NCBI GenBank assembly: GCA_963669175.1
Contig: OY769902.1
Span: 4,505,081 to 4,569,080 of the forward strand
DNA: 64,000 nucleotides
Reading direction: 5' to 3'
Source of the DNA: a bacterium
GTDB taxonomy: Bacteria; Electryoneota; Electryoneia; Electryoneales; Electryoneaceae
The notes beneath the pieces were generated by a model that worked only from the letters and a program-made list of their open reading frames with translations, had not been told where the DNA came from and ran no database searches. Shown piece by piece: positions 51,514-63,262 of this stretch. The position numbers were made by a program, and so were the translations under genes. Position 1 is the first letter of the stretch, and each line of letters starts with the position of its first letter.

Positions 51514-52443
51514 ATGAAGATCGTCACCCTGACAATGAATCCGGCCATTGACGCCACCTGCGAGGTGGAGAATGTCAAGTCGGAGGATAAGCTGCGAACC
51601 AGCGCGCCAAGCTACGAGCCGGGCGGCGGCGGCATCAATGTCTCCCGCGCGATTCGCAAGCTCGGCGGCGAGTCCCGCGCCATCTACCCCGAGGGCGGGT
51701 TCAAGGGCAACCTGCTGCGAAAACTGATCGAAGATGAGGGGGTGACGCACACGCCCGTCGAATTCGAGGGCATGACGCGAGAGAACCTGACAGTCAACGA
51801 ATCCAGCAGCAAGGCGCAATACCGGTTTACCATGCCTGGTCCCGAGGTTGGACGGGATGTCCAGGAACGTTGTCTTGAGGCGCTCGTCGAGGGCGAGGCG
51901 CCGGAGATCATCGTCGCAAGCGGCAGCCTCCCGCGTGCGGTGGACGAGGACTTCTACGCACGGGTGGCGTGCAAGGCTAAAGAGCTGGGCGCGAAGCTCG
52001 TCGTGGACACTAAGGGCCTGCCGCTCTACCGCGCCGTCGAACAGGGCGTGTACATGATCAAGCCGAACATGCGGGAGGTCAACGACCTGACCGGCGAAGA
52101 GATCGACAGCGAGGAGAAACTGATAAGACTGGCCGGGGAGATCTTCGATAAGAAACGTGCCGAGGTGATCGTCATCTCGCTCGGCGCGGGAGGCGCGCTG
52201 TTTATCCACGATGGCAAGGTTCGGCCCATCCGAACACCCACCGTGCCGATCCGCAGCAAGGTCGGAGCGGGCGACAGCATGGTTGCGGGTATGGTGCTGA
52301 AGGTGGTGGAGGGCTGGGACGCTTGGAACGCAGCGGTGTACGGTGTCGCTGCTGGCGCGGCGGCAGTGCAGACTCCCGGCACGGAGCTCTGCCGCCGCGA
52401 AGATACCGAGGAGCTCTATGAGAGAATAAAAAAAGAGCTCTGA
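51514..52443 (+). CDS. PfkB-family sugar kinase (1-phosphofructokinase / tagatose-6-P kinase-like)
   Basis: PfkB signatures GGGGINVSRA and KVGAGDSMVAGM. About 62 % GC, unlike surrounding DNA. Confidence 0.8.
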   Translation: MKIVTLTMNPAIDATCEVENVKSEDKLRTSAPSYEPGGGGINVSRAIRKLGGESRAIYPEGGFKGNLLRKLIEDEGVTHTPVEFEGMTRENLTVNESSSKAQYRFTMPGPEVGRDVQERCLEALVEGEAPEIIVASGSLPRAVDEDFYARVACKAKELGAKLVVDTKGLPLYRAVEQGVYMIKPNMREVNDLTGEEIDSEEKLIRLAGEIFDKKRAEVIVISLGAGGALFIHDGKVRPIRTPTVPIRSKVGAGDSMVAGMVLKVVEGWDAWNAAVYGVAAGAAAVQTPGTELCRREDTEELYERIKKEL

Positions 52444-52459
52444 TACCCATCGTTATGAC

Positions 52460-53795
52460 TGTGCCTCGTCAAAATTCTGTCCGCCGCAACACCATTGATT
52501 ATCAGCGGTTTCGCTGATACCTTAGTTTTATGATAAACTCACTCAAAACCCTGGTACGGTCGATCCGAAATTGGTTTCAATCTCGGAACCAATTGGTATT
52601 GGAAAATCTGCTGCTGCGACATCAGATCGCAATACTCCAACGTAAAAAAAAAGCCAAGTCTAAATAAATCCGATAGAGCGATACTTCTTCTCTTTACCAA
52701 GCTCCTGAAGAGCTGGAAAGATGCCCTTGTCATCGTGAAACCGGAAACGATTATCAAATGCCACAGACAGGGATTCAGACTGTTCTGGCGCTGGAAAAGC
52801 CGTCCGCGTAAGAAAGGCAGGAATCCCATCAATCCCGAGGTCAGGAAACTGATTCGTGACATGAGCCGGGCGAATCCGATCTGGGGTGCGCCACGCATTC
52901 ATGGCGAGCTGATGAGATTAGGAATCGTGGTTTCCGAGGCCACTGTGAGCAGGTACATGGTCAAACAAAAGAAACCACCATCACAGACTTGGCGCACCTT
53001 CCTGGACAACCATGTGAAAGATCTCGTGTCAATTGATTTTCTCGTCGTGCCGACGGTTAATTTCAGGCTGCTCTACGTCCTGGTTGTGCTGTCCCACGAA
53101 CGCCGCAGGATAGTTCATTTCAATGTCACCGATTCTCCCACCGCTGCGTGGACTGGACAGCAGATCATTGAAGCGTTTCCATACGACACAGCGCCAAAAT
53201 ACCTGATAAGAGATAACGATAAGATCTATGGTTTTGACTTCAAGGAGAAAGTCAAAGCCTGTGGCATTACGCCAATAAGGACAGCGTACCGTTCCCCCTG
53301 GCAAAATGCGTATTGTGAGCGAGTGATCGGCACTCTGCGAAGGGATTGCCTTGACCACATCCTCATTTTCAGTCGACGACAGCTGATGCGTGTTCTTAGT
53401 GAGTACGTGGATACCTACTACAACACCGAGCGAACACACCTGTCACTTGGCAAAGATTCACCTGAGTCGAGGGAGATCCAGAATCCTGCGACAGGACGCA
53501 TTGTCGAGATACCGATCCTCGGCGGCTTGCACCACAGGTATTTCCGGAAAGCTGCTTGATCGTTGGTGTAGTAGCTGTCAGGTCGGAAGTCGAGTTTGTC
53601 GTTGGGTTGGTGAGCTAATCTGCGGGATACTCTGTCTCAGATCTTCGAATTGTGTGATTTCCACTCCATCTCGTCCTCGATTCTTCTTCGTCACTCCTTA
53701 CCCGAGGGATTTTTTCATACGAATCGATTCATTTTCGTCCTGGTTTGAGATTCTCACCCTGAATTTGTGCACAGATTGCATTTTGACGAGGGACA
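52460..53795 (+). mobile_element. IS481-like insertion sequence, copy 2 (1336 bp)
   Basis: Left TIR TGTGCCTCGTCAAAATTCTGTCCGC (52460-). Right end ...CACAGATTGCATTTTGACGAGGGACA (-53795). Transposase about 88 % identical at protein level to copy 1. Confidence 0.7.
52530..53559 (+). CDS. IS481-like DDE/rve transposase split at an A9 tract (orfA 52530-52667; orfB from about 52645 to 53559)
   Basis: orfA MINSLKTLVRSIRNWFQSRNQLVLENLLLRHQIAILQRKKK-AKSK*. The +1 frame reads KKKPSLNKSDRAILLLFTKLLKSWKDALVIVKPETIIKCHRQGF... through the rve core to the stop. Nine consecutive A at 52644-52652. Confidence 0.7.
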
Positions 53796-54179
53796 ATGTA
53801 CGCCTTCATGAACAAACACTGAATCAGAGGTGAAGCTACAACTGTCAACCATTGTGAAAACAGGATTGCTACCAATTGCTACTATCCCCACGGAACAGTT
53901 ACTAAATTCACAATGTGTAATAGCATTATTCAAGCTTGTTTTTTGATCAATTGCTGGCTCACAAGATTCGAATATACAATATGATATCTCTGAATTAACT
54001 GAAGAATTTTTCATAAGTTGTATGGTTGGACCAACTGTTCCCAGTCGTCCGGAAGTAAACATAATCGGATGATTCTCTGTGCCAATAGCAGTAATCTCGC
54101 CTTCAACAATGAATTTACACCCATCTCCTGCAATATAGGATCCTGGTAAAATAGTGAGTGAACCGCCAGCTAGGATGTG
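53754..54179 (-). pseudogene. internal fragment of a beta-helix-like repeat protein, truncated at both ends by IS insertions
   Basis: The reading frame is open up to the IS4 TIR at 54180 and runs into the IS481-like right end at 53795, where it acquires a stop. Confidence 0.35.
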
Positions 54180-55484
54180 TCACTGCTGTCCGGTTAATTG
54201 AGCATTGTTCTTGATTGCTGTTTTCGTTTTTGTTTTTCGATATCGCTTGTTCTTTGAAAGTCTTGCCACGCTTTGGCTACAGGGATACAGATCAGCAGAT
54301 GTGTGCTGATAAATACCAAGAGTTGATGAGTAGTGATTGCCTCGTCGGCGTTCTTTTGCAACACTCTTAGCAGGAGAAAGACGATCATGGCAACCCAGAT
54401 TTGCGACATCACTGCATTTTCGGATGTCCCCAGAAAAGACTTGATTTTCAGGTTCTGTTTCACCCATTTGAAGAACAGTTCAATCTGCCAGCGTTGCTTG
54501 TAGAGCTGCGCAATGGTCAACGCGTCTATTTCCAACAAGTTTGTCAGAAACCACAATTCCTTTTTTGTTTCCGGATCGGTGAAGTGTACCAGGCGCAAGG
54601 GATCAGGATAGTGGTCTGCCGGGGTTCCGTCAAAATGACCAATCCAGTCACCACGGACACCTGTTCCGGCTTCCACCTTTCGTTTTTCGGTCCATTCAAA
54701 GCCGACGTTGCTTTTCATGCGTGTGACGAAAAAGGCCTGGTTGCGATTGATCCTGGCAAACCAGGCGCTGTCGAAGTAGCCACGGTCAACCAGATAGGTT
54801 GTGCCTGACGTAATGGGCATGGTTCGCGCCGCCCCGATATCGCTGACCTTGCCGTCGGTGATGACAATGTCTTGTGGAATAAGCCCGTCATGATCCAGTA
54901 GGGTGTGCAGTTTCAGAGCACCTTTTGTTGTGCGGTATTTTGCCCAGGGCAACCGTTCCAGGCATACCGGAATCAGCGTGCTGTCAAGCGAAAGAAGTTT
55001 ACCGGGAACGGGAAAATCATGCTTGGAAAACCTGTCACAGAAAAGGGCGAATAATGCCTGAAACAGTTCGTAGTAAAATCGCCAGTTAATCCGCTTGTTC
55101 GCTTCTGCCAGGGTCGACTTCTTTACATTGACCAAGGGGTCCATTGAGAACAGGGATGCCGTTGCATGCTGAATATCGCGTGTCGACTTCAATCCCGCCA
55201 ACTGTGCGAACATCAGAACCGCAAAATGGGTGGATGCCGTAAACACAGAGGCATATTTATCAACATGATACTTCGTGGCAAGCTTGTCAAAGAGCTCGTT
55301 GGGTACAAGCTTTTGTATCTGCATCAATACGGTTGTAGATTGAGCCATGACTTGCATCCTCCGTTGATGAGAATGTGTGTGCAAACTCAATCTTACCAAC
55401 GGTACCTTGTGATGCAAGTCTTTATTATTATACAATCTCCGGGATAGTTACACGAAATCGTGATAACCTACCGGACAGCAGTGA
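54180..55484 (-). mobile_element. IS4-family insertion sequence (1305 bp) with 14-bp terminal inverted repeats CCGGACAGCAGTGA
   Basis: TCACTGCTGTCCGG at 54180-54193 and CCGGACAGCAGTGA at 55471-55484. Single DDE_Tnp_1 transposase gene. Confidence 0.75.
54194..55348 (-). CDS. IS4-family DDE transposase (DDE_Tnp_1)
   Basis: ATG at 55348 with GGAGGA RBS. Motifs DxG...; YKQRWQIELFFKWVKQNLKIK (YREK region typical of the IS4 family). Confidence 0.85.
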   Translation of the reverse strand: MAQSTTVLMQIQKLVPNELFDKLATKYHVDKYASVFTASTHFAVLMFAQLAGLKSTRDIQHATASLFSMDPLVNVKKSTLAEANKRINWRFYYELFQALFALFCDRFSKHDFPVPGKLLSLDSTLIPVCLERLPWAKYRTTKGALKLHTLLDHDGLIPQDIVITDGKVSDIGAARTMPITSGTTYLVDRGYFDSAWFARINRNQAFFVTRMKSNVGFEWTEKRKVEAGTGVRGDWIGHFDGTPADHYPDPLRLVHFTDPETKKELWFLTNLLEIDALTIAQLYKQRWQIELFFKWVKQNLKIKSFLGTSENAVMSQIWVAMIVFLLLRVLQKNADEAITTHQLLVFISTHLLICIPVAKAWQDFQRTSDIEKQKRKQQSRTMLN

Positions 55485-55800
55485 TGTTGAGACCATCAAC
55501 GCTAAGGTTACTAAAAAATCCCCTGGAAATTATGCATTGGGCAACAAGGACAATGAAGGTTCCTTTCTAGTTGGGTATGTCGGTCGTGCAGACCAGGATC
55601 TTAATGCACGTCTGAAGTCATGGGTGAGTAAAACGAAACGACCTCTTTTCAAGTACAGTTATGCCTCGTCAGCCAAAGCCGCATTTGAAAAAGAATGCGA
55701 AAACTATCACGACTTTGATCCACTTGGAAACGATATTCACCCTGATCGCCCCGATGGCACTGATTGGGGATGCCCCTGCTGCGACACTTTTAACGACTGA
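55485..55800 (+). CDS. GIY-YIG-like small nuclease-domain protein with C-terminal WGCPCC cluster; 5' end abuts the IS4 TIR and no start codon remains
   Basis: PGNYALGNKDNEGSFLVGYVGRADQDLNARLKSW fits GIY-x9-11-YIG-x-A-x-x-L-x-x-R-L. The frame is open back to the IS boundary. Confidence 0.45.
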
Positions 55801-55827
55801 ATCAACTATAATAATGCGGAGATAGTT

Positions 55828-58800
55828 ATGAACGATCCAGGCGGATCAAATTGGCACATTTGGGATCTTCATATTCACACGCCATTCTCAGCATTGAACA
55901 ATGGTTTCCCGAATGACTTCGATGAGTATGCCAAGCGTGTATTTGCTAAAGCTGTTGAAATGCAAATTGCTGCAGTTGGAATTACGGATTATTTTTGTAT
56001 AGAGGGCTATAAGAAAATCCGGGCGCTCCTTAACAACAAAGCTCGTTTAGAAGAGCTTTGTGGCAGTGGAATAGCTGAAGCCGTCCAAAATATCCTTTTT
56101 ATCCCAAACATTGAATTACGCGCTGATATAATAATCCAAGACGTTAGCGGTAAAGACAGCAGGGTTAATTTCCATGTATTGTTCTCCGATGAGATATCAC
56201 CAGAACAAATCGAGGAAAATTTCCTTAGAGAGATAAAGTTTACTAAGGAAGGTAACCCAAGTGGAGCCGACGAATCATGGTCACTTACGATAAGCAATTT
56301 AGAGATCCTAGGAAGAAGTTTGAAAAAACAGCATCTCCCCTTTGCAGAAAAACCGGATATAGAGATTGGCATGATGAATGCCGTAGTCAACCATAGTGAA
56401 GTCAGCAAAATCCTGGCTAATAAACCCTCAATCTTTGGGAGCCGATACCTCCTAGCAGTCGTTGCAGATGAAGACTTATCAAAATGTAGCTGGAACGGCC
56501 AAGGACATCTGACACGAAAAGTGATGATCCAGAAATCAGATATATTGTTCTCGTCCAATCCAAGTACTCGAGAATTTGGACTAGGTCTTAAACATCCGAC
56601 TATTGATGAGTTCAAAGCTGAGTTTAAAACCTTTAAGCCGTGTATTCACGGGTCAGATGCCCATGGCTTAAAGCATCTATTTATCCCTAGTGAACAGAGA
56701 TTCACTTGGATCAAGGCTGATCCGACATTTGCTGGGCTAAAACGCATCTTGAGGGAACCAGAATCTCGAGTTTTCATTGGTCAAGAACCACCCGCCATTG
56801 ACCAACAACGTAATAATAAGACACGTTATTGTGAGAAACTGTCATTTGAAAAACTTTCAAAATCCGCCTTTGATGAACTTTGGTTTTCCGGCGATATACC
56901 TTTAAATACTGGTTTGGTAGCTGTGATCGGGAACAAAGGTAGCGGCAAGAGTGCGCTGGCTGATTCTTTAGGATTGGTTGGTAATTCGCCAAGAGAGAAG
57001 CACTTCTCTTTTCTCAATCTCAACAAATTCCGCCGTCAGCGCGAACGCAAAGCTGAACACTTCAGAGCATCCCTACATTGGCTTTCCGGTGACATCAATT
57101 CGCGACTTCTATCTGAAACCGTTGATACGACCTCTGTAGAACGGATTAAGTATATTCCTCAAAACTACCTTGAAACGATCTGCAACGAGGTTGCAAGTGG
57201 TGAGGGTAGCGAATTTGACAAAGAACTAAAAAGTGTCATTTTCTCCCATGTCCCTGACCATGAACGACTTGATTGCCAATCATTTGATGATTTAATGGCT
57301 TTCAAGACAAACGAAACTAGTGAACGCATCAAGTTATTACAGAAAAGGTTACACAACATTAACGAGCGAATTGTAACTTTGAATGAAATGTTAACTGATG
57401 AATATCGGCAAAAACTTGAGCAACAATTAGAACATAAAAAACTTGAGCTTGACGCTCACAACGAAGTTAAACCGAAAGAGATCATTCCTCCAGATAAAGA
57501 TCCTGTTGTAGGAGACAAAAATGAGAAACTTGCAGCAGAGATTGAAAAGCTTCGTAGAGAAATTGAACAAATTGATTCGAATATCTTAGATATCAAATCC
57601 CAAAATAAGTATATGCTTCGTCGCAAAGCATTAGCTGAAAAACTGAAAGCTAAGCTCGAAAATCTTCAGCGCAGTTATAACGATTTTTCAGCAAGTTGTT
57701 CTGAATGTGAAGAATTGGGTTTACAACCTAAAGATGTCATCACATTCAAAGTTCATTTTGAAAAATTAGAGGATATCATATCAAGTGCTGTTCTCGAAAG
57801 TCGTAAATTCTCGAACATGCTTTTAGAGGACGTAGAGGGTACCCCAGTCAATGAAAAGAAACAAAAGCTTGCAAAGGTGAAAGAACTCCGCAATACCATG
57901 AGCGCTGCAGACCAACAATATCAGCAGTATCTAGAAGAACAAGCGAAATGGGAAGCTCGTAACAAAGAAATCATTGGTTCAACTGATACCCCCAAAAGTC
58001 TTGAATATACCAGAGCACAACTCAAAAAATTGCTTCTACTTCCAACCGAACTCTCCACAAAAAAAGAAGAGCGCATCGCGATTGTCCAAGCAATCTTCCA
58101 AGAAATCGACAATTTGGCAAGTAAATATGCCGCATTGTACAATCCAATTGAACAGGCAATAGCTGGAGATCCCCTGAAGGATCGGGGTCTAGAACTTGGT
58201 TTCAAGGTATCTATTGTCGCAAAGAGTTTCGAGGATCGTTTCTTTAATCTGATTCAGCAAGGTAGACGAGGAAGTTTCTGCGGTGTTGAAGAAGGACAGA
58301 AGCGACTTCGAAAAATGTTACGCGAAGCCGATTTCTCGACTACACAAGGCGTTGCGATCTTTATCAAGGAAATAGATGATGCTTTAACATATGACCTTCG
58401 CGATGATGAGCATCAGCTTGTACAGATCACAGATTTAGTAAAGAAAGGGATTGAACCTGTCAATGTTTACGATTTTGTCTTTGGTTTAGAATACCTCTTT
58501 CCTCGCTACGCGCTTACTTGGGGAAATCGTACTCTTGACCAGCTTTCACCAGGCGAACGCGGAGCCTTGCTTCTTGTATTTTATTTATTAGTAGACAAGG
58601 ACACTATCCCTTTGGTTATTGATCAACCGGAGGAAAATCTTGACAACGAATCCGTCTATCGAATGCTTGTACCTTGTATTAAAAAAGCGAAGGAGCGACG
58701 CCAAGTGATTATTGTAACACATAATCCGAATTTGGCAGTTGTCTGCGATGCAGATCAAATTATATACTGCGAAATGGACAAACCTGGAGGGAATCGAATA

Positions 58801-58920
58801 ACATATACAACGGGATCCATCGAAAATCCTGCTATCAACCGCCATATTGTTGATGTATTAGAAGGTACTCGTCCAGCATTTGATGTTCGCGATGCGAAGT
58901 ATAAACTTGTAGACTTTTAG
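55828..58920 (+). CDS. PHP-domain phosphoesterase fused to Rad50/SbcC/SMC-like ABC ATPase (1030 aa)
   Basis: PHP motifs WDLHIHTPFS, NIELRAD, NFHVLF, HGSDAHG. Walker A VIGNKGSGKSALADSLG. About 330-aa heptad-rich coiled-coil insert. ABC signature-like LSPGERG. Walker B LVIDQPEENLD. H-loop VIIVTHN. GGAGA RBS. Confidence 0.75.
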   Translation: MNDPGGSNWHIWDLHIHTPFSALNNGFPNDFDEYAKRVFAKAVEMQIAAVGITDYFCIEGYKKIRALLNNKARLEELCGSGIAEAVQNILFIPNIELRADIIIQDVSGKDSRVNFHVLFSDEISPEQIEENFLREIKFTKEGNPSGADESWSLTISNLEILGRSLKKQHLPFAEKPDIEIGMMNAVVNHSEVSKILANKPSIFGSRYLLAVVADEDLSKCSWNGQGHLTRKVMIQKSDILFSSNPSTREFGLGLKHPTIDEFKAEFKTFKPCIHGSDAHGLKHLFIPSEQRFTWIKADPTFAGLKRILREPESRVFIGQEPPAIDQQRNNKTRYCEKLSFEKLSKSAFDELWFSGDIPLNTGLVAVIGNKGSGKSALADSLGLVGNSPREKHFSFLNLNKFRRQRERKAEHFRASLHWLSGDINSRLLSETVDTTSVERIKYIPQNYLETICNEVASGEGSEFDKELKSVIFSHVPDHERLDCQSFDDLMAFKTNETSERIKLLQKRLHNINERIVTLNEMLTDEYRQKLEQQLEHKKLELDAHNEVKPKEIIPPDKDPVVGDKNEKLAAEIEKLRREIEQIDSNILDIKSQNKYMLRRKALAEKLKAKLENLQRSYNDFSASCSECEELGLQPKDVITFKVHFEKLEDIISSAVLESRKFSNMLLEDVEGTPVNEKKQKLAKVKELRNTMSAADQQYQQYLEEQAKWEARNKEIIGSTDTPKSLEYTRAQLKKLLLLPTELSTKKEERIAIVQAIFQEIDNLASKYAALYNPIEQAIAGDPLKDRGLELGFKVSIVAKSFEDRFFNLIQQGRRGSFCGVEEGQKRLRKMLREADFSTTQGVAIFIKEIDDALTYDLRDDEHQLVQITDLVKKGIEPVNVYDFVFGLEYLFPRYALTWGNRTLDQLSPGERGALLLVFYLLVDKDTIPLVIDQPEENLDNESVYRMLVPCIKKAKERRQVIIVTHNPNLAVVCDADQIIYCEMDKPGGNRITYTTGSIENPAINRHIVDVLEGTRPAFDVRDAKYKLVDF

Positions 58921-58998: not shown

Positions 58999-59844
58999 TT
59001 AATTTAGAAAAATATCTGTAATCAAGGTACATCGGCAATTCGGATGCGCTGGAATAGGTGGCAATTGATTTAAAATATACTCCTGTCCATTCAACGGACC
59101 GCAAACAGGACAAACTCGTTCGTCCAAGGCCGTATACCACACAACTTCCTCAACTTTCATGTCTTTGTATAGATGTATCCTGCCTTGGTTATAAGATCGC
59201 ATGACTTCTGTCCGTGTAATAACTTCAATCCTATTCTGAGCCGTCTTAAACACCTTCTTCCCCGCGAAGCGAAATTTATCCTTTTCTGATGGTTTGATTA
59301 CATCCCCAATATCCAGTGCGATTTGACCTATATCCCGACCAGAAAGAATACCCGCCTGCAGGTTGAGCTTGATGTCATCCAGCAATCGATCTGACACCGT
59401 TCCCAATAGCTTGATGTTACACAGAGCCAGGTTTTCCAGTGCTCGACCATCAATCGTATCAAACGCTTTATCAATTATCGCCTGCCAGGCTTCAGTTTCC
59501 TTCAATCCCATCACCCCGCTGTCCCTAAGCTCAAACACTCCCCGTTCGATTCCCAGTCTAAAAGCGTCTTTTGTCATTGGACGGGCAAGTGAAGTTGTAG
59601 ACTTCTTCAGCTCCTTCATGACTGACTCAATCCGGTCGAGGATAGATTCAAGACGTCGCTTCCAGAGGGCAGATCCGGGTGCGACACTTTTCATTTCCGC
59701 CACACGTAAAAGTTCACTCCGAACCTGGGTTGCGGCCTGTTCGAGTGATTTCAGAAGAAGCGTTTCCTGTTCTGCGGTGTACTGCTGAGCTGCCTTCAGG
59801 GAGATGTTCAGCTCAACTTCCAGCCGAGGATCGATAGTTGCCAT
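58999..59844 (-). CDS. phage head-morphogenesis protein (Mu gpF / SPP1 gp7 family)
   Basis: C-terminal CPVCGPLNGQ...HPNCRCT block and conserved central region. Adjacent to the portal gene. Confidence 0.7.
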   Translation of the reverse strand: MATIDPRLEVELNISLKAAQQYTAEQETLLLKSLEQAATQVRSELLRVAEMKSVAPGSALWKRRLESILDRIESVMKELKKSTTSLARPMTKDAFRLGIERGVFELRDSGVMGLKETEAWQAIIDKAFDTIDGRALENLALCNIKLLGTVSDRLLDDIKLNLQAGILSGRDIGQIALDIGDVIKPSEKDKFRFAGKKVFKTAQNRIEVITRTEVMRSYNQGRIHLYKDMKVEEVVWYTALDERVCPVCGPLNGQEYILNQLPPIPAHPNCRCTLITDIFLN

Positions 59845-59847
59845 GAA

Positions 59848-61308
59848 TCAATGATCCTCAGAGTGTGTCTGCTGGAATTGAATATCTCGATTCACTTCAT
59901 CATATAATGCTTCAACATCCGCATCAGATTGCGGGTTATCAGTCTTGTCGTTCTGCGATTCATCCTTCGCCAAGCCCAGATATTTCCGTGCCTCATCTCG
60001 AGTGAGTACATCCTGCAGGGTTAGACTGGCGATGATCTCCGGTTTAAGCAGCCTGGACATACGCGATTCTTCGCCATTGTAGTTTTCATCTTCCACTGAA
60101 GGCTGCAATCCAAGCCTGGATTGAAGGGTTGCCCTGCTGACCAGACCGCGATCATACAGCTCCATGTACATCTTCCGACGATCCTGTTCTTCAGCCAAGT
60201 CGAGATCATCAAACTGATAGGTGATTTCAGCATCATCATTTCCTTGCATTTCCAGCCAGTCCAGATAGACCCAGTCGAGGATCTCCCTAACAATCCTCTT
60301 AATCTCAGACAGCATGATGATGATCTTTTTAAACCCGACCGAAGCTGTTGCGAAATTCGGTCCCTCACCTGTGACAAGACTTTTCACAAATCCCAAGGCC
60401 ACGATGATATCGCTTTTTACTTCCTTGACTTTCTCTTCGGTTCGAAGGACTTCACCCTCAGTGCCGTAGGTTTTCACATCCACGTAATAGGGAACGACTA
60501 CACCTTGCTTCGGGTCCATCTCGTCCAGGATATCACGAATCTTCTCGATCATCTCCTGCTTGGGTGTGATGATCTTGTCACCGAACTTACCGCCAACAGA
60601 GATGAAACGGAGTGGAGTTGTCCAGCGTTGGGCAATTGCCTTTTCTGCGTTCCGGTAGTGGCGCATGAGCTGGATGGATTCAAAGGCAGGCTGAACAATG
60701 GAAACGCCATGCAAGTTGAAATCCGGACTGTCCCATTTCGCCCGGAAGAACTGTTCCGGTTCAAGGCTGATTTCTTTTCCCATGCCAGCAGCAGCCTGGT
60801 CGTCTTTCTTCACTTTCTGCTTGATTTCATCGATCTCACCCGTTTCATCATCAAGCTTGTAAGTCAGGCCAATAGGATTTAGACATGTAATCCGTTCGTA
60901 GTCCTTGAAACCGTCACCTGATTTCTTACCACCATACTGCTTATAGGCAGCGCACTCGCCCTTAACTAACAGTTGCAAAACCATGTCACGGATGAGCTTG
61001 TCCATCCCAAGGCGACGGTGGAGTGCTCGAGCCTTCTTTTGCGTATCTGCAGCATCCACGAGCGGGATGATCTGCTCCCCAACTGCAAACACACGCCAGG
61101 CATTGACCGCGTTGTTCACAATCGGTTCGCTGGTGAAATAGTACCAGGCAAGCTGTGCCATTTCTTCCCATTTCTCGGGTACACCTTCAACCGTGTCCAA
61201 ACCATCTGTTGCACCACCCATACGATTCAAGGCAGCGCCATGGGCAACATCAAATCCAGAAGAAACAGGGTTGCGTCTCTGCAACCCCAGTGCTGAAAGC
61301 AGGGTCAT
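59848..61308 (-). CDS. phage portal protein (probable)
   Basis: 486 aa, between the terminase large subunit and the Mu-F-like gene. Acidic C-terminus. 3-bp gap to the downstream gene. Confidence 0.5.
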   Translation of the reverse strand: MTLLSALGLQRRNPVSSGFDVAHGAALNRMGGATDGLDTVEGVPEKWEEMAQLAWYYFTSEPIVNNAVNAWRVFAVGEQIIPLVDAADTQKKARALHRRLGMDKLIRDMVLQLLVKGECAAYKQYGGKKSGDGFKDYERITCLNPIGLTYKLDDETGEIDEIKQKVKKDDQAAAGMGKEISLEPEQFFRAKWDSPDFNLHGVSIVQPAFESIQLMRHYRNAEKAIAQRWTTPLRFISVGGKFGDKIITPKQEMIEKIRDILDEMDPKQGVVVPYYVDVKTYGTEGEVLRTEEKVKEVKSDIIVALGFVKSLVTGEGPNFATASVGFKKIIIMLSEIKRIVREILDWVYLDWLEMQGNDDAEITYQFDDLDLAEEQDRRKMYMELYDRGLVSRATLQSRLGLQPSVEDENYNGEESRMSRLLKPEIIASLTLQDVLTRDEARKYLGLAKDESQNDKTDNPQSDADVEALYDEVNRDIQFQQTHSEDH

Positions 61309-61327
61309 TCTTTACTCCAGTATCTGG

Positions 61328-61534
61328 CTATTCCTCGCCGGTCAGGAAACTGACAATCTCTCCAAGAAGGTCTTCAACATGGCCGAGGTCACCCACATGC
61401 GCGAAGGTGATCGGTTCATCCTGGCCGTGTTTCTTGAGTTCCGTTTGCATCTTCCCGATCAGTGATTGAATCTTTGCCTGTTTTTCGTTGTAATCTTTCT
61501 TGGCTTTCGCTTTTCTTTCTTGCTGTGTCATCAT
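61328..61534 (-). CDS. small phage protein (68 aa, Lys-rich)
   Basis: ORF between terminase and portal genes. Confidence 0.3.
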   Translation of the reverse strand: MMTQQERKAKAKKDYNEKQAKIQSLIGKMQTELKKHGQDEPITFAHVGDLGHVEDLLGEIVSFLTGEE

Positions 61535-61642
61535 CGCCTCCTTGTAAGGTGTTGTTTCTGCTGTGCTTCTGCACTAATCAGCGATGAATTGTATGCGATT
61601 ATCAAGTCCTTGTGCTGGCTTCTGAAGGCACTCAAACCCTTA

Positions 61643-63262
61643 TCAGAACTTGAAAATCGGTTTTGTCGTTACGGGCATGATAGCGATCTCTTCCACATTG
61701 GTCTCGATCTCCTTCATCTCATCCAGTTCCACTGCCAGAACAGCACACCTGACCGCATCGATGATGTGATCACGCCCTTTGGAATAGATCACCTTCCCGT
61801 TGGTCATCGTGTATGTCTGGGTGGTGAACTGATCTTCGATTTCCAGATCGCTGTCAGGAAAGCTGATCAGCTTTCTTGCCAGACGACCGTTGATCAGACT
61901 GGTCATCAACTCCTTGGTACGCTTCTTGATCTGCTTGCCAGAAGTGTTGAACCCAATGGTGGTCGACGAACCGAAGTCGAAGGCCTGCAACCTGTCCCCG
62001 AAATTGTGATCCGCGAACTTGTCGAGGCGTTTCAGGTCCTGTTCGACTGCCAAACCATTCCCGCCCTTGTCAATCCCGATCCAGGTGAACTCGAAGTAGT
62101 TGTCCAAGACAGCAACCGCTTCAGCGATATAAGGGTAGGCAACATGTTCGAGGTGAACACGCAGCACTGCGTTCAGCAAACCTTCATCATCCCGTTCAAA
62201 CACCACCAGTTCGCATGGATCTGACGTATATCCAAGGTCGCCCCCCAGCACGTACTCACCTGGCTGGGGTGTCAATCCCAGCAACAAGTCAAACCGTGTA
62301 CGGACTTCATCATCACCATCACAGTCCAGCATCTCCTCACCGGTGATCACCACCTTGCGGTAAGCATGGATTACTTTCTGGTTGGCATGGAAAGCCTCGA
62401 CATTGAATGCTGCATAAGAAGGACTGCCGTGTTCGCCAAGAATCTCATGCTGGTATCCTGAAGTATCACGGCCACCGTAAAACTCGACCAGTTCTTCTTC
62501 ACGCTCCTTTGTCCAGTTAGGATGAAGCATTGAAGGCCAGCGCACGACAAACCAGCGTCCGGTCTTATCCTGGGTCAGTCTGTAGTAGGTTGAATCCCTA
62601 AGTCCATTGGGATTGGAGTAAATTCGCATCGTGCCATTGGCGTTCAAGCATCGACGCAATGCTTTCCAGGCTCGCTCAGTCAACCATGCACCCTCATCGA
62701 CCCAGATCCGATTTACGTGAAGCGATCTTAGCGACTGCCCCTTGTCACCAGCTGGCCGGAAGTGAACCAGCGTCCCACCAGCGAATCGGATCTGGTAATA
62801 GGGCTTTCGTTTGATATCCAGGTGACCAAGACGATTCCTGGCGATACTAGCTTCCAGATCTGCATTGCTGAATATCTGATGTTCCACTTCCTCAATGATG
62901 GTTTCCAGATGTCCCTGATGTGGAGTGACAACCAGCCCGCTGTCATGTGGTGTTGTGAATCCGAAGTGCAAAACCAGGGTAGTTAGGACGATGGTCTTTC
63001 CGACCTCACGGCCATCCTGATGAATGATCTGAGGATGATCATTACGCAGATCCTCAACCTGATGCTCCCAGTATGCCCTGATCGTCCCGTCCTGGTTTGC
63101 CAGAAACTTCTCGCCCCATTGCACCGGGTCTTTCAGGATGCGATAAGCCTGGATCATCTCATCGGACAAATCGCTGGAAGCCTTATGATGATTAGCTTCA
63201 ACAGGCATATCTACCCCCTTGATAGTCCGTATAATCCATGCCATGTTGTATGCGAAAACCAT
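61643..63262 (-). CDS. phage terminase large subunit
   Basis: Walker A-like HQDGREVGKT. Terminase ATPase/nuclease architecture. Position before portal. Confidence 0.75.
   Translation of the reverse strand: MVFAYNMAWIIRTIKGVDMPVEANHHKASSDLSDEMIQAYRILKDPVQWGEKFLANQDGTIRAYWEHQVEDLRNDHPQIIHQDGREVGKTIVLTTLVLHFGFTTPHDSGLVVTPHQGHLETIIEEVEHQIFSNADLEASIARNRLGHLDIKRKPYYQIRFAGGTLVHFRPAGDKGQSLRSLHVNRIWVDEGAWLTERAWKALRRCLNANGTMRIYSNPNGLRDSTYYRLTQDKTGRWFVVRWPSMLHPNWTKEREEELVEFYGGRDTSGYQHEILGEHGSPSYAAFNVEAFHANQKVIHAYRKVVITGEEMLDCDGDDEVRTRFDLLLGLTPQPGEYVLGGDLGYTSDPCELVVFERDDEGLLNAVLRVHLEHVAYPYIAEAVAVLDNYFEFTWIGIDKGGNGLAVEQDLKRLDKFADHNFGDRLQAFDFGSSTTIGFNTSGKQIKKRTKELMTSLINGRLARKLISFPDSDLEIEDQFTTQTYTMTNGKVIYSKGRDHIIDAVRCAVLAVELDEMKEIETNVEEIAIMPVTTKPIFKF

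Follow-up and report, generated by a model that had tools for sequence, protein, structure and literature searches.

A full-length, stand-alone TrlF-family PHP-ATPase gene next to a truncated GIY-YIG gene in a mobile island of an Electryoneaceae bacterium

Do two neighbouring genes with nuclease-like domains, wedged between an insertion sequence (IS) and a prophage remnant, form one defence module? The question is raised by a stretch of 64,000 nucleotides (nt; here called the window) of contig OY769902.1 from a bacterium of the family Electryoneaceae (assembly GCA_963669175.1, positions 4,505,081 to 4,569,080), in which a small gene of GIY-YIG type is followed by a gene for a protein of 1030 amino acids (aa) that joins a PHP domain to an ABC ATPase. 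An earlier note, made from the letters alone, had proposed the pair as a candidate two-gene nuclease/defence module. We find that the large gene, to judge from its sequence, is an intact and stand-alone member of TrlF, a family already named at NCBI, and that the small gene is a 5'-truncated remnant of a gene that occurs elsewhere without TrlF. It is likely that the large gene, a PHP domain (probably a nuclease) fused to an SMC/Rad50-type ABC ATPase, serves on its own as a single-gene anti-phage/anti-plasmid immunity system, with no partner in the GIY-YIG gene.

The large protein matches the NCBIfam model NF045780 (TrlF family AAA-like ATPase) with 706 bits (E 1.2e-211; the curated cutoff is 350 bits), and the alignment runs from end to end: aa 6-1026 of the protein correspond to positions 2-944 of the 944 positions of the model. 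Its homologues on plasmids carry the PGAP label 'TrlF family AAA-like ATPase'. At NCBI, Ppl, TrlF and Spaf_1101 each form a family of their own, and the models of the other two stay below their cutoffs on this protein: Spaf_1101 scores 115 bits (cutoff 475) on the C-terminal ATPase lobe only, and Ppl (NF042955) scores 108.7 bits (cutoff 1000), with aa 900-1021 as the well-aligned part. Judged by these curated cutoffs the protein is a TrlF and not a Ppl, membership in the latter being ruled out by its score, and the fusion is not an unknown one. The PADLOC search that the earlier note had suggested does return Ppl as the best match (PDLC02208, 83.3 bits), confined to the C-terminal ATPase lobe (aa 904-1021) and below the Ppl criterion; the matches that come after it (AriA, LmuB and GajA, all generic defence ABC ATPases) also fall on this lobe, and no other part of the protein can be aligned by sequence with Ppl or the other defence ABC ATPases. 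MADS3, AriA, LmuB and GajA were rejected as family assignments, as the generic ATPase lobe alone matches. In a Pfam scan SMC_N and AAA_21 were found, and neither a PHP model nor the RloC/PrrC ATPase family was matched.

The architecture described from the letters is correct: a PHP domain and an ABC ATPase that is Rad50/SbcC-like and carries a coiled coil are joined in a 1030-aa open reading frame (ORF), which is confirmed by the ORF list (Table 1) and has a ribosome-binding site (GGAG) 8 nt 5' of its ATG. Every motif that had been quoted is present, in the PHP domain (DLHIHT at aa 13-18, NIELRAD at 94-100, NFHVLF at 114-119 and HGSDAHG at 274-280) and in the ATPase (VIGNKGSGKS at 366-375, LSPGERG at 906-912, LVIDQPEENLD at 929-939 and VIIVTHN at 960-966), and these motifs are nearly invariant in 115 homologues. 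Invariant among them are the Walker A lysine K374, Q445, LSPGERG, DQPEE and H965, and eight residues of the PHP metal site (D13, H17, D54, E96, H116, D214, D277 and H279) are approximately so. The N-terminal domain has its structural matches among PHP-fold enzymes: PsfC (14.0), EndoQ (13.8), RNase AM (13.8) and 3o0f (12.5). When a profile of the N-terminal 335 aa was compared with PDB sequences, PHP proteins alone were matched, all below significance. The protein thus has an N-terminal PHP domain and the full set of ATPase motifs (Walker A, Q-loop, signature, Walker B and H-loop), and it shares with the TrlF family the length class and the order of an N-terminal PHP or 'histidinol phosphatase' part followed by an ATPase.

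The ATPase head is indeed split by a coiled coil, of ∼295 aa (aa 486-780) where roughly 330 aa had been estimated; the model has helices at 486-546, 559-623, 645-716 and 738-780. A CxxC pair (C624 and C627; 57697-57708) lies at the predicted apex of this coiled coil, and is kept in 39 of the 43 homologues that share 57% identity or more with the window protein, but is absent from more distant TrlF proteins. This distribution suggests that the pair may be a clade-specific, putatively zinc-binding hook like that of Rad50. Within the TrlF family the window protein falls into a 1030-aa clade that differs from other members by a TDY in place of TDH in the PHP site and by the CxxC at the coiled-coil apex.

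The small gene is of GIY-YIG type, as had been called: its product has the GIY-YIG alpha/beta fold, and its well-conserved family (377 database clusters and more than 468 metagenome matches) has GNYA.G, V.YVGR.D, F..SYA, K, E, H, N..HP and CP.C as invariant residues and motifs. In 27 family members Y29, Y44, R47, E83 and N95 are invariant and R55 is near-invariant. The pattern GNY...YVGR...R...E...N would supply the catalytic Tyr, Tyr, Arg, Glu and Asn of the GIY-YIG superfamily (UvrC N-domain, R.Eco29kI, T4 EndoII, I-TevI, PD-T4-3), the roles being assigned by pattern. The family differs from this superfamily in being minimal (116 aa), stand-alone and extended by a C-terminal tail rich in His and Cys (CPxC), and it is covered by no model of Pfam or NCBIfam: none reaches threshold, NCBIfam gives no match at all, and the only weak matches are to T5orf172 (E 0.079, 13.9 bits, cutoff 20) and to PADLOC PDC-S14 (E 0.0026). 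In the tail H88, H98, C109 and C112 are invariant and C84 is near-invariant, and it is possibly a zinc knuckle.

The window copy of the small gene is not the intact partner gene that it had been taken for. Its homologues are typically 111-120 aa long and begin with MASLNMNGPYKLD, whereas the window protein enters the family alignment at residue 14: the start codon and the rest of the first 13 codons, and with them the consensus beginning, have been replaced by the end of the IS at 55484. The small ORF that is called mechanically from a GTG at 55375 starts inside the IS, since the inverted repeat ends at 55484. After the IS end the only in-frame start is a TTG at Leu56, which would drop conserved N-terminal sequence. 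The missing 5' end was also sought beyond the IS and is ruled out there, where a beta-helix fragment is found. The window copy is probably a pseudogene.

The pairing of the two genes does not recur. For this comparison three sets of TrlF loci were used (5 contigs from metagenomes or metagenome-assembled genomes that carry the closest relatives at 72-73% identity, 80 species-representative loci and 9 plasmid/viral loci) and reduced to 81 independent loci, with 500 nt or more of upstream sequence in 75 of them; the small gene was sought by tblastn with the 27 members of its family. It was found in none of the 81 independent loci and in none of the nine further plasmid/viral loci, and a full TrlF was found in none of ∼103 loci of the small gene. 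Clustering of neighbouring ORFs over the 81 TrlF and the ∼103 small-gene loci gave no conserved partner of either gene; beyond that it recovered only restriction-modification (R-M) genes, a DUF1016/YhcG-like gene and integrases. Downstream of the small gene, other genomes have heterogeneous neighbours: a CBASS pair of HNH-SAVED and CD-NTase in one case, and elsewhere HsdS, HsdR, DUF2971, Schlafen/AlbA_2, Hypoth_Ymh, ThsB-TIR, PD-(D/E)XK and HNH, with HEPN-like neighbours also described. With such mixed downstream genes and no fixed partner, the small gene looks free-standing in regions that resemble defence islands. The GIY-YIG gene is thus best described, from these comparisons, as a separate free-standing island gene and not a functional partner of TrlF; its pairing with TrlF is incidental and its truncation probably results from an IS-associated rearrangement. 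Homologues of the large protein do occur without the small gene, but not in the core DNA-repair contexts that the earlier note had tied to such an outcome.

Two further observations on the small gene were made. One of its loci (L132, 2764-3300) has the C-terminus of a distant ABC ATPase (33% identity over 183 aa) that ends ∼140 nt upstream of the GIY-YIG gene; no other locus of the small gene has TrlF-like sequence of any kind, and the gene order in L132 is opposite to that of the window. In addition, 15 copies of the small family are found on viral contigs.

TrlF itself is abundant (at least 554 matches in species-representative genomes, 2522 protein clusters and many plasmids) and patchily distributed across phyla, in variable, mobile and R-M contexts and without a fixed partner across the loci sampled. 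Type I R-M genes (HsdM, HsdS or HsdR) lie at most 4 kb from trlF in 15 out of 81 independent loci; the typical distance from the end of HsdS to trlF is 8 nt, and hsdR comes after trlF. For example, two loci (L024, 3790-16824, and L038, 3679-14250) have the order hsdM-(yhcG-like)-hsdS-trlF-(orf)-hsdR on one strand, with hsdS abutting trlF, and a similar type I R-M association is seen in L009-L012. Integrases are near trlF in eight loci (out of 81). On plasmids, conjugative ones among them, 19 records have a near-full-length TrlF named so by PGAP, with neighbours such as ISNCY, IS5 and IS66 elements. Phage copies are rare: seven of 50,697 phage records match TrlF, one of them alone over more than 50% of its length, and seven of 2.9 million viral contigs carry it. 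In the P2-like Yersinia phage vB_YenM_42.18 (OM046624; L198, 1757-4372) a gene annotated as 'chromosome partition protein' lies between gpA and the portal gene gpQ and encodes an 872-aa TrlF-family protein (NF045780, 464.8 bits, cutoff 350; Ppl, 126.5 bits, cutoff 1000). This protein keeps the canonical PHP motifs DLHIHS and ITDH and matches PHP-type NCBIfam models directly. The position between gpA and the portal gene is a P2 accessory slot, and not a replication/recombination module.

Given the R-M, integrase, plasmid/IS and P2-slot contexts of its homologues, and Ppl as the best PADLOC match, we read TrlF as a probable defence gene. The Ppl system named in the earlier note is real and is the nearest experimentally tested analogue: a single gene with ATPase and PHP domain, validated against phages (PMC11482910) and listed as uncharacterised (PMC11482910; 10.1101/2025.09.30.679545). 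Ppl, known from P2/P4 hotspots, resembles the window protein in combining a PHP domain and an ABC-type ATPase in one protein, in the C-terminal ATPase lobe and, through the Yersinia phage member of TrlF, in the P2-like accessory slot; it differs by the curated cutoff and by being kept as a separate family.

On the best reading, then, the product of the window gene would be an ATP-dependent nuclease like Ppl, standing alone in a mobile defence island and acting in defence. The mechanism is drawn by analogy with Rad50/SbcC, OLD-family and Ppl-type proteins. Binding of ATP would let the ATPase heads of two TrlF protomers engage, and in the clade of the window protein the protomers might also be joined at their coiled-coil tips through the CxxC zinc hook. 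Such an assembly would recognise DNA that is foreign, or DNA ends, and cut it with the PHP domain carried on the same chain, giving immunity to phages or plasmids from a single gene. TrlF would in effect be a single-chain, SbcCD-like nuclease for immunity, as has been proposed for Ppl. By this analogy the window protein would work like SbcCD/Mre11-Rad50 without being a member of that family: it shares the Rad50-type head, the antiparallel coiled coil, the CxxC at the predicted apex (in its own clade) and a predicted metal-dependent nuclease attached to the head, but its PHP nuclease candidate is fused in cis with no calcineurin-like Mre11/SbcD gene adjacent, its coiled coil is much shorter, no conserved repair context is found and the putative zinc hook is not family-wide.

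The location has the mobile-element and defence-island flavour that had been noticed. The large gene belongs to a mobile island of low G+C content, with IS elements on one side and a prophage remnant on the other, and its composition is foreign: the G+C content is 0.58-0.62 in the host flank up to ∼52500, 0.37-0.43 between 55500 and 59000, and 0.48-0.52 in the phage genes. The IS upstream is bounded by inverted repeats (54180-54194 and 55470-55484) that are 100% complementary and are the sole copies in the window; its transposase matches DDE_Tnp_1 (3.6e-28) and DUF4372 (7.9e-14) in Pfam. It had been described as inserted exactly at the 5' end of the GIY-YIG gene. In fact it truncates two unrelated genes, the GIY-YIG gene on the right and a beta-helix gene on the left, both of which are decapitated, and no target-site duplication is visible in its flanks; this points to an IS-associated deletion or rearrangement, not to a clean insertion. 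A sigma-70-like site (TTGTGA-18-TACAAT, 55407-55436 on the plus strand) is found at the right end of the IS and points outward to the GIY-YIG remnant and TrlF. It could, as a candidate only, replace a lost native promoter for transcription.

Downstream of TrlF the phage genes that had been reported (Mu-F, a portal-sized ORF and a large terminase, all on the minus strand) are present, but the window shows no integrase on that side; an integrase core is found in one ORF only, the rve gene of IS type that lies upstream. The phage block has the order terminase, 68-aa ORF, portal-sized ORF and Mu-F and ends abruptly at ∼58999, with no capsid or scaffold genes beyond. The prophage appears to be truncated where the low-G+C segment with TrlF starts. 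No transfer RNA genes that could mark an integration site are found in the window.

Table 1. Coordinates of the TrlF-family gene, its predicted parts and the surrounding features, in window positions
Feature	Position	Strand	Details
TrlF-family gene, intact, 1030 aa	55828..58920	+	N-terminal PHP-like phosphoesterase and SMC/Rad50-type ABC ATPase split by coiled coil
PHP-like metal-dependent phosphoesterase domain, predicted nuclease, aa 1-320	55828..56787	+	motif residues D13, H15, H17, D54, E96, H116, D214, D277, H279
ATPase head, N-terminal lobe, aa 335-480	56830..57267	+	Walker A GNKGSGKS at 56929-56952, Q-loop Q445
Antiparallel coiled-coil insertion, aa 486-780	57283..58167	+	long helices in model
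ATPase head, C-terminal lobe, aa 790-1013	58195..58866	+	LSPGERG signature, LVIDQPEENLD Walker B/D-loop, THN H-loop
5'-truncated remnant of stand-alone 116-aa GIY-YIG nuclease-family gene	55486..55800	+	104 codons and stop; ends 27 nt before the TrlF gene
pfkB kinase	51514-52443		Pfam
IS-type rve/HTH transposase fragment (second, partial IS-type gene)	52735-53559		Pfam
Right-handed beta-helix fragment	53754-54179	-	frame open up to left IS boundary, so 5'-truncated
IS4-family insertion sequence	54180..55484	-	transposase ORF 54194-55435; perfect 15-bp terminal inverted repeats
Prophage remnant, convergent with TrlF	58999..63262	-	context, outside TrlF unit
Mu-F-like head protein	58999-59844	-	Pfam Phage_Mu_F 3.4e-13
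Portal-sized ORF	59848-61308	-	
Large terminase	61643-63262	-	Pfam Terminase_6N 1.9e-05

Several points weigh against TrlF as a single-gene defence nuclease. No experiment links TrlF with phage defence; PADLOC 2.0 has no full-length TrlF model, and the match to Ppl covers the C-terminal ATPase lobe only. Across the 115 homologues the PHP site is non-canonical, with TDY in place of TDH, and H15 is replaced by Gln in half of them; with these deviations both the activity and the substrate (DNA, RNA or nucleotide) are uncertain. The gene that gave the family its name is trlF, which in Photorhabdus laumondii belongs to a three-gene operon, the temperature restriction locus trlR-trlF-trlG, and is annotated as a histidinol phosphatase (Hapeshi et al. 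2020, PMC7554251). In this study, the only one of a TrlF, the mutations for temperature tolerance are all in trlG and none in trlF, the role of which is left open (PMC7554251). The window gene differs in lying outside any trlR-trlF-trlG operon, which is a feature of the founding locus and not part of the hidden Markov model definition. As to the window itself, the promoter once upstream of the small gene has been lost to the large gene, and the promoter scan does not rise above the shuffled background, including the only promoter-like site, at 55407-55436; expression in the source genome is uncertain. Lastly, the 27-nt gap, the shared strand and the like low G+C content of the two genes are compatible with a former operon in the source lineage.

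The same arrangement, with a G+C content of 0.40-0.43 in both genes, is what can be said for a dedicated nuclease/defence module of two genes, with the small nuclease acting as effector or partner of the PHP-ATPase, together with the fact that elsewhere the small gene often precedes another gene by 10-50 nt. This proposal is highly improbable in view of the co-occurrence counts given above (0/81, 0/9 and 0/∼103), in which the nearest miss, L132, has its ABC C-terminus upstream and not downstream; among TrlF proteins the closest relatives (72-73% identity) come without the small gene, the closest relatives of the small gene (79-85% identical to P0001, a member of its family, and at most 77% to the window copy) precede other genes, and the small gene is truncated whereas TrlF retains every motif. 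The earlier note had also considered a phage-borne recombination nuclease. A role in DNA repair or recombination for the prophage or the host, as a single-chain analogue of SbcCD/Mre11-Rad50 or T4 gp46/47, would suit the position beside phage morphogenesis genes and the proofreading and repair nucleases that PHP domains form in PolX and EndoQ (PMC11482910 ref. 93). We regard it as very unlikely: TrlF is rare in phages and viral contigs (see the counts above), the window gene and the phage genes are convergent and unlike in composition, the distribution is patchy in variable, mobile and R-M contexts and not in conserved core repair neighbourhoods, and the phage copy found lies in an accessory slot. 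Least probable of all is a part in growth control like that of trlR-trlF-trlG, after which the family is named and the deletion of which lifts the growth arrest at 36 C (PMC7554251): the selected mutations, as said, spare trlF (PMC7554251), neither trlG (AlbA_2 and HATPase_c_4) nor trlR is a neighbour in the window, where a convergent Mu-F gene lies downstream, no cluster of trlG/trlR-like neighbours is found in the 81 loci, and the AlbA_2/ATPase growth arrest might itself be an abortive-infection system that misfires at high temperature.

The R-M contexts of TrlF suggest a different role. In EcoprrI the gene prrC lies between hsdS and hsdR, and in RloC a nuclease is joined to a Rad50-like ATPase, a coiled coil and a zinc hook. 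TrlF could likewise be a restriction-linked guard, silenced by or cooperating with type I R-M and firing upon restriction inhibition or on DNA ends, the window copy then being an orphan without its former R-M partner; the 15 R-M-associated loci, the hsdS-trlF-hsdR order of L024 and L038 with its abutting genes, the association in L009-L012 and the parallel of the TrlF layout and clade-specific CxxC with RloC are all consistent with it. About 80% of the loci, however, lack R-M genes in the vicinity, and the copies in the window, on plasmids and in the phage are among them; many unrelated defence genes commonly land in R-M operons, and TrlF has no Pfam match to the RloC/PrrC ATPase family; its effector would be an N-terminal PHP domain and not a C-terminal anticodon nuclease. 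We therefore consider TrlF as such a guard distinctly unlikely. A broader proposal, which is also unlikely but to which we give slightly more weight, is that TrlF proteins are widespread single-chain 'PHP-Rad50' immune nucleases, of which a sizeable subset would be hard-wired, like PrrC, into the hsdS-X-hsdR slot of type I R-M operons as a back-up guard that would fire on DNA ends or restriction inhibition, while proteins of the window clade would form zinc-hook dimers. A single-gene, partner-free immunity nuclease remains the reading of TrlF that we favour.

The locus itself is routine: it adds one more copy of an NCBI-named family that resembles Ppl, and the new gene pairing that had been proposed does not exist. 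The interest comes from the abundance of the family and from its R-M-embedded subset, and not from the window locus. The 116-aa GIY-YIG family, which is unannotated, recurs beside CBASS, TIR, HEPN-like and R-M genes. TrlF is common and has neither an assigned function nor a PADLOC model, and its genomic contexts make it a good candidate for an ATP-dependent nuclease that would act in defence.

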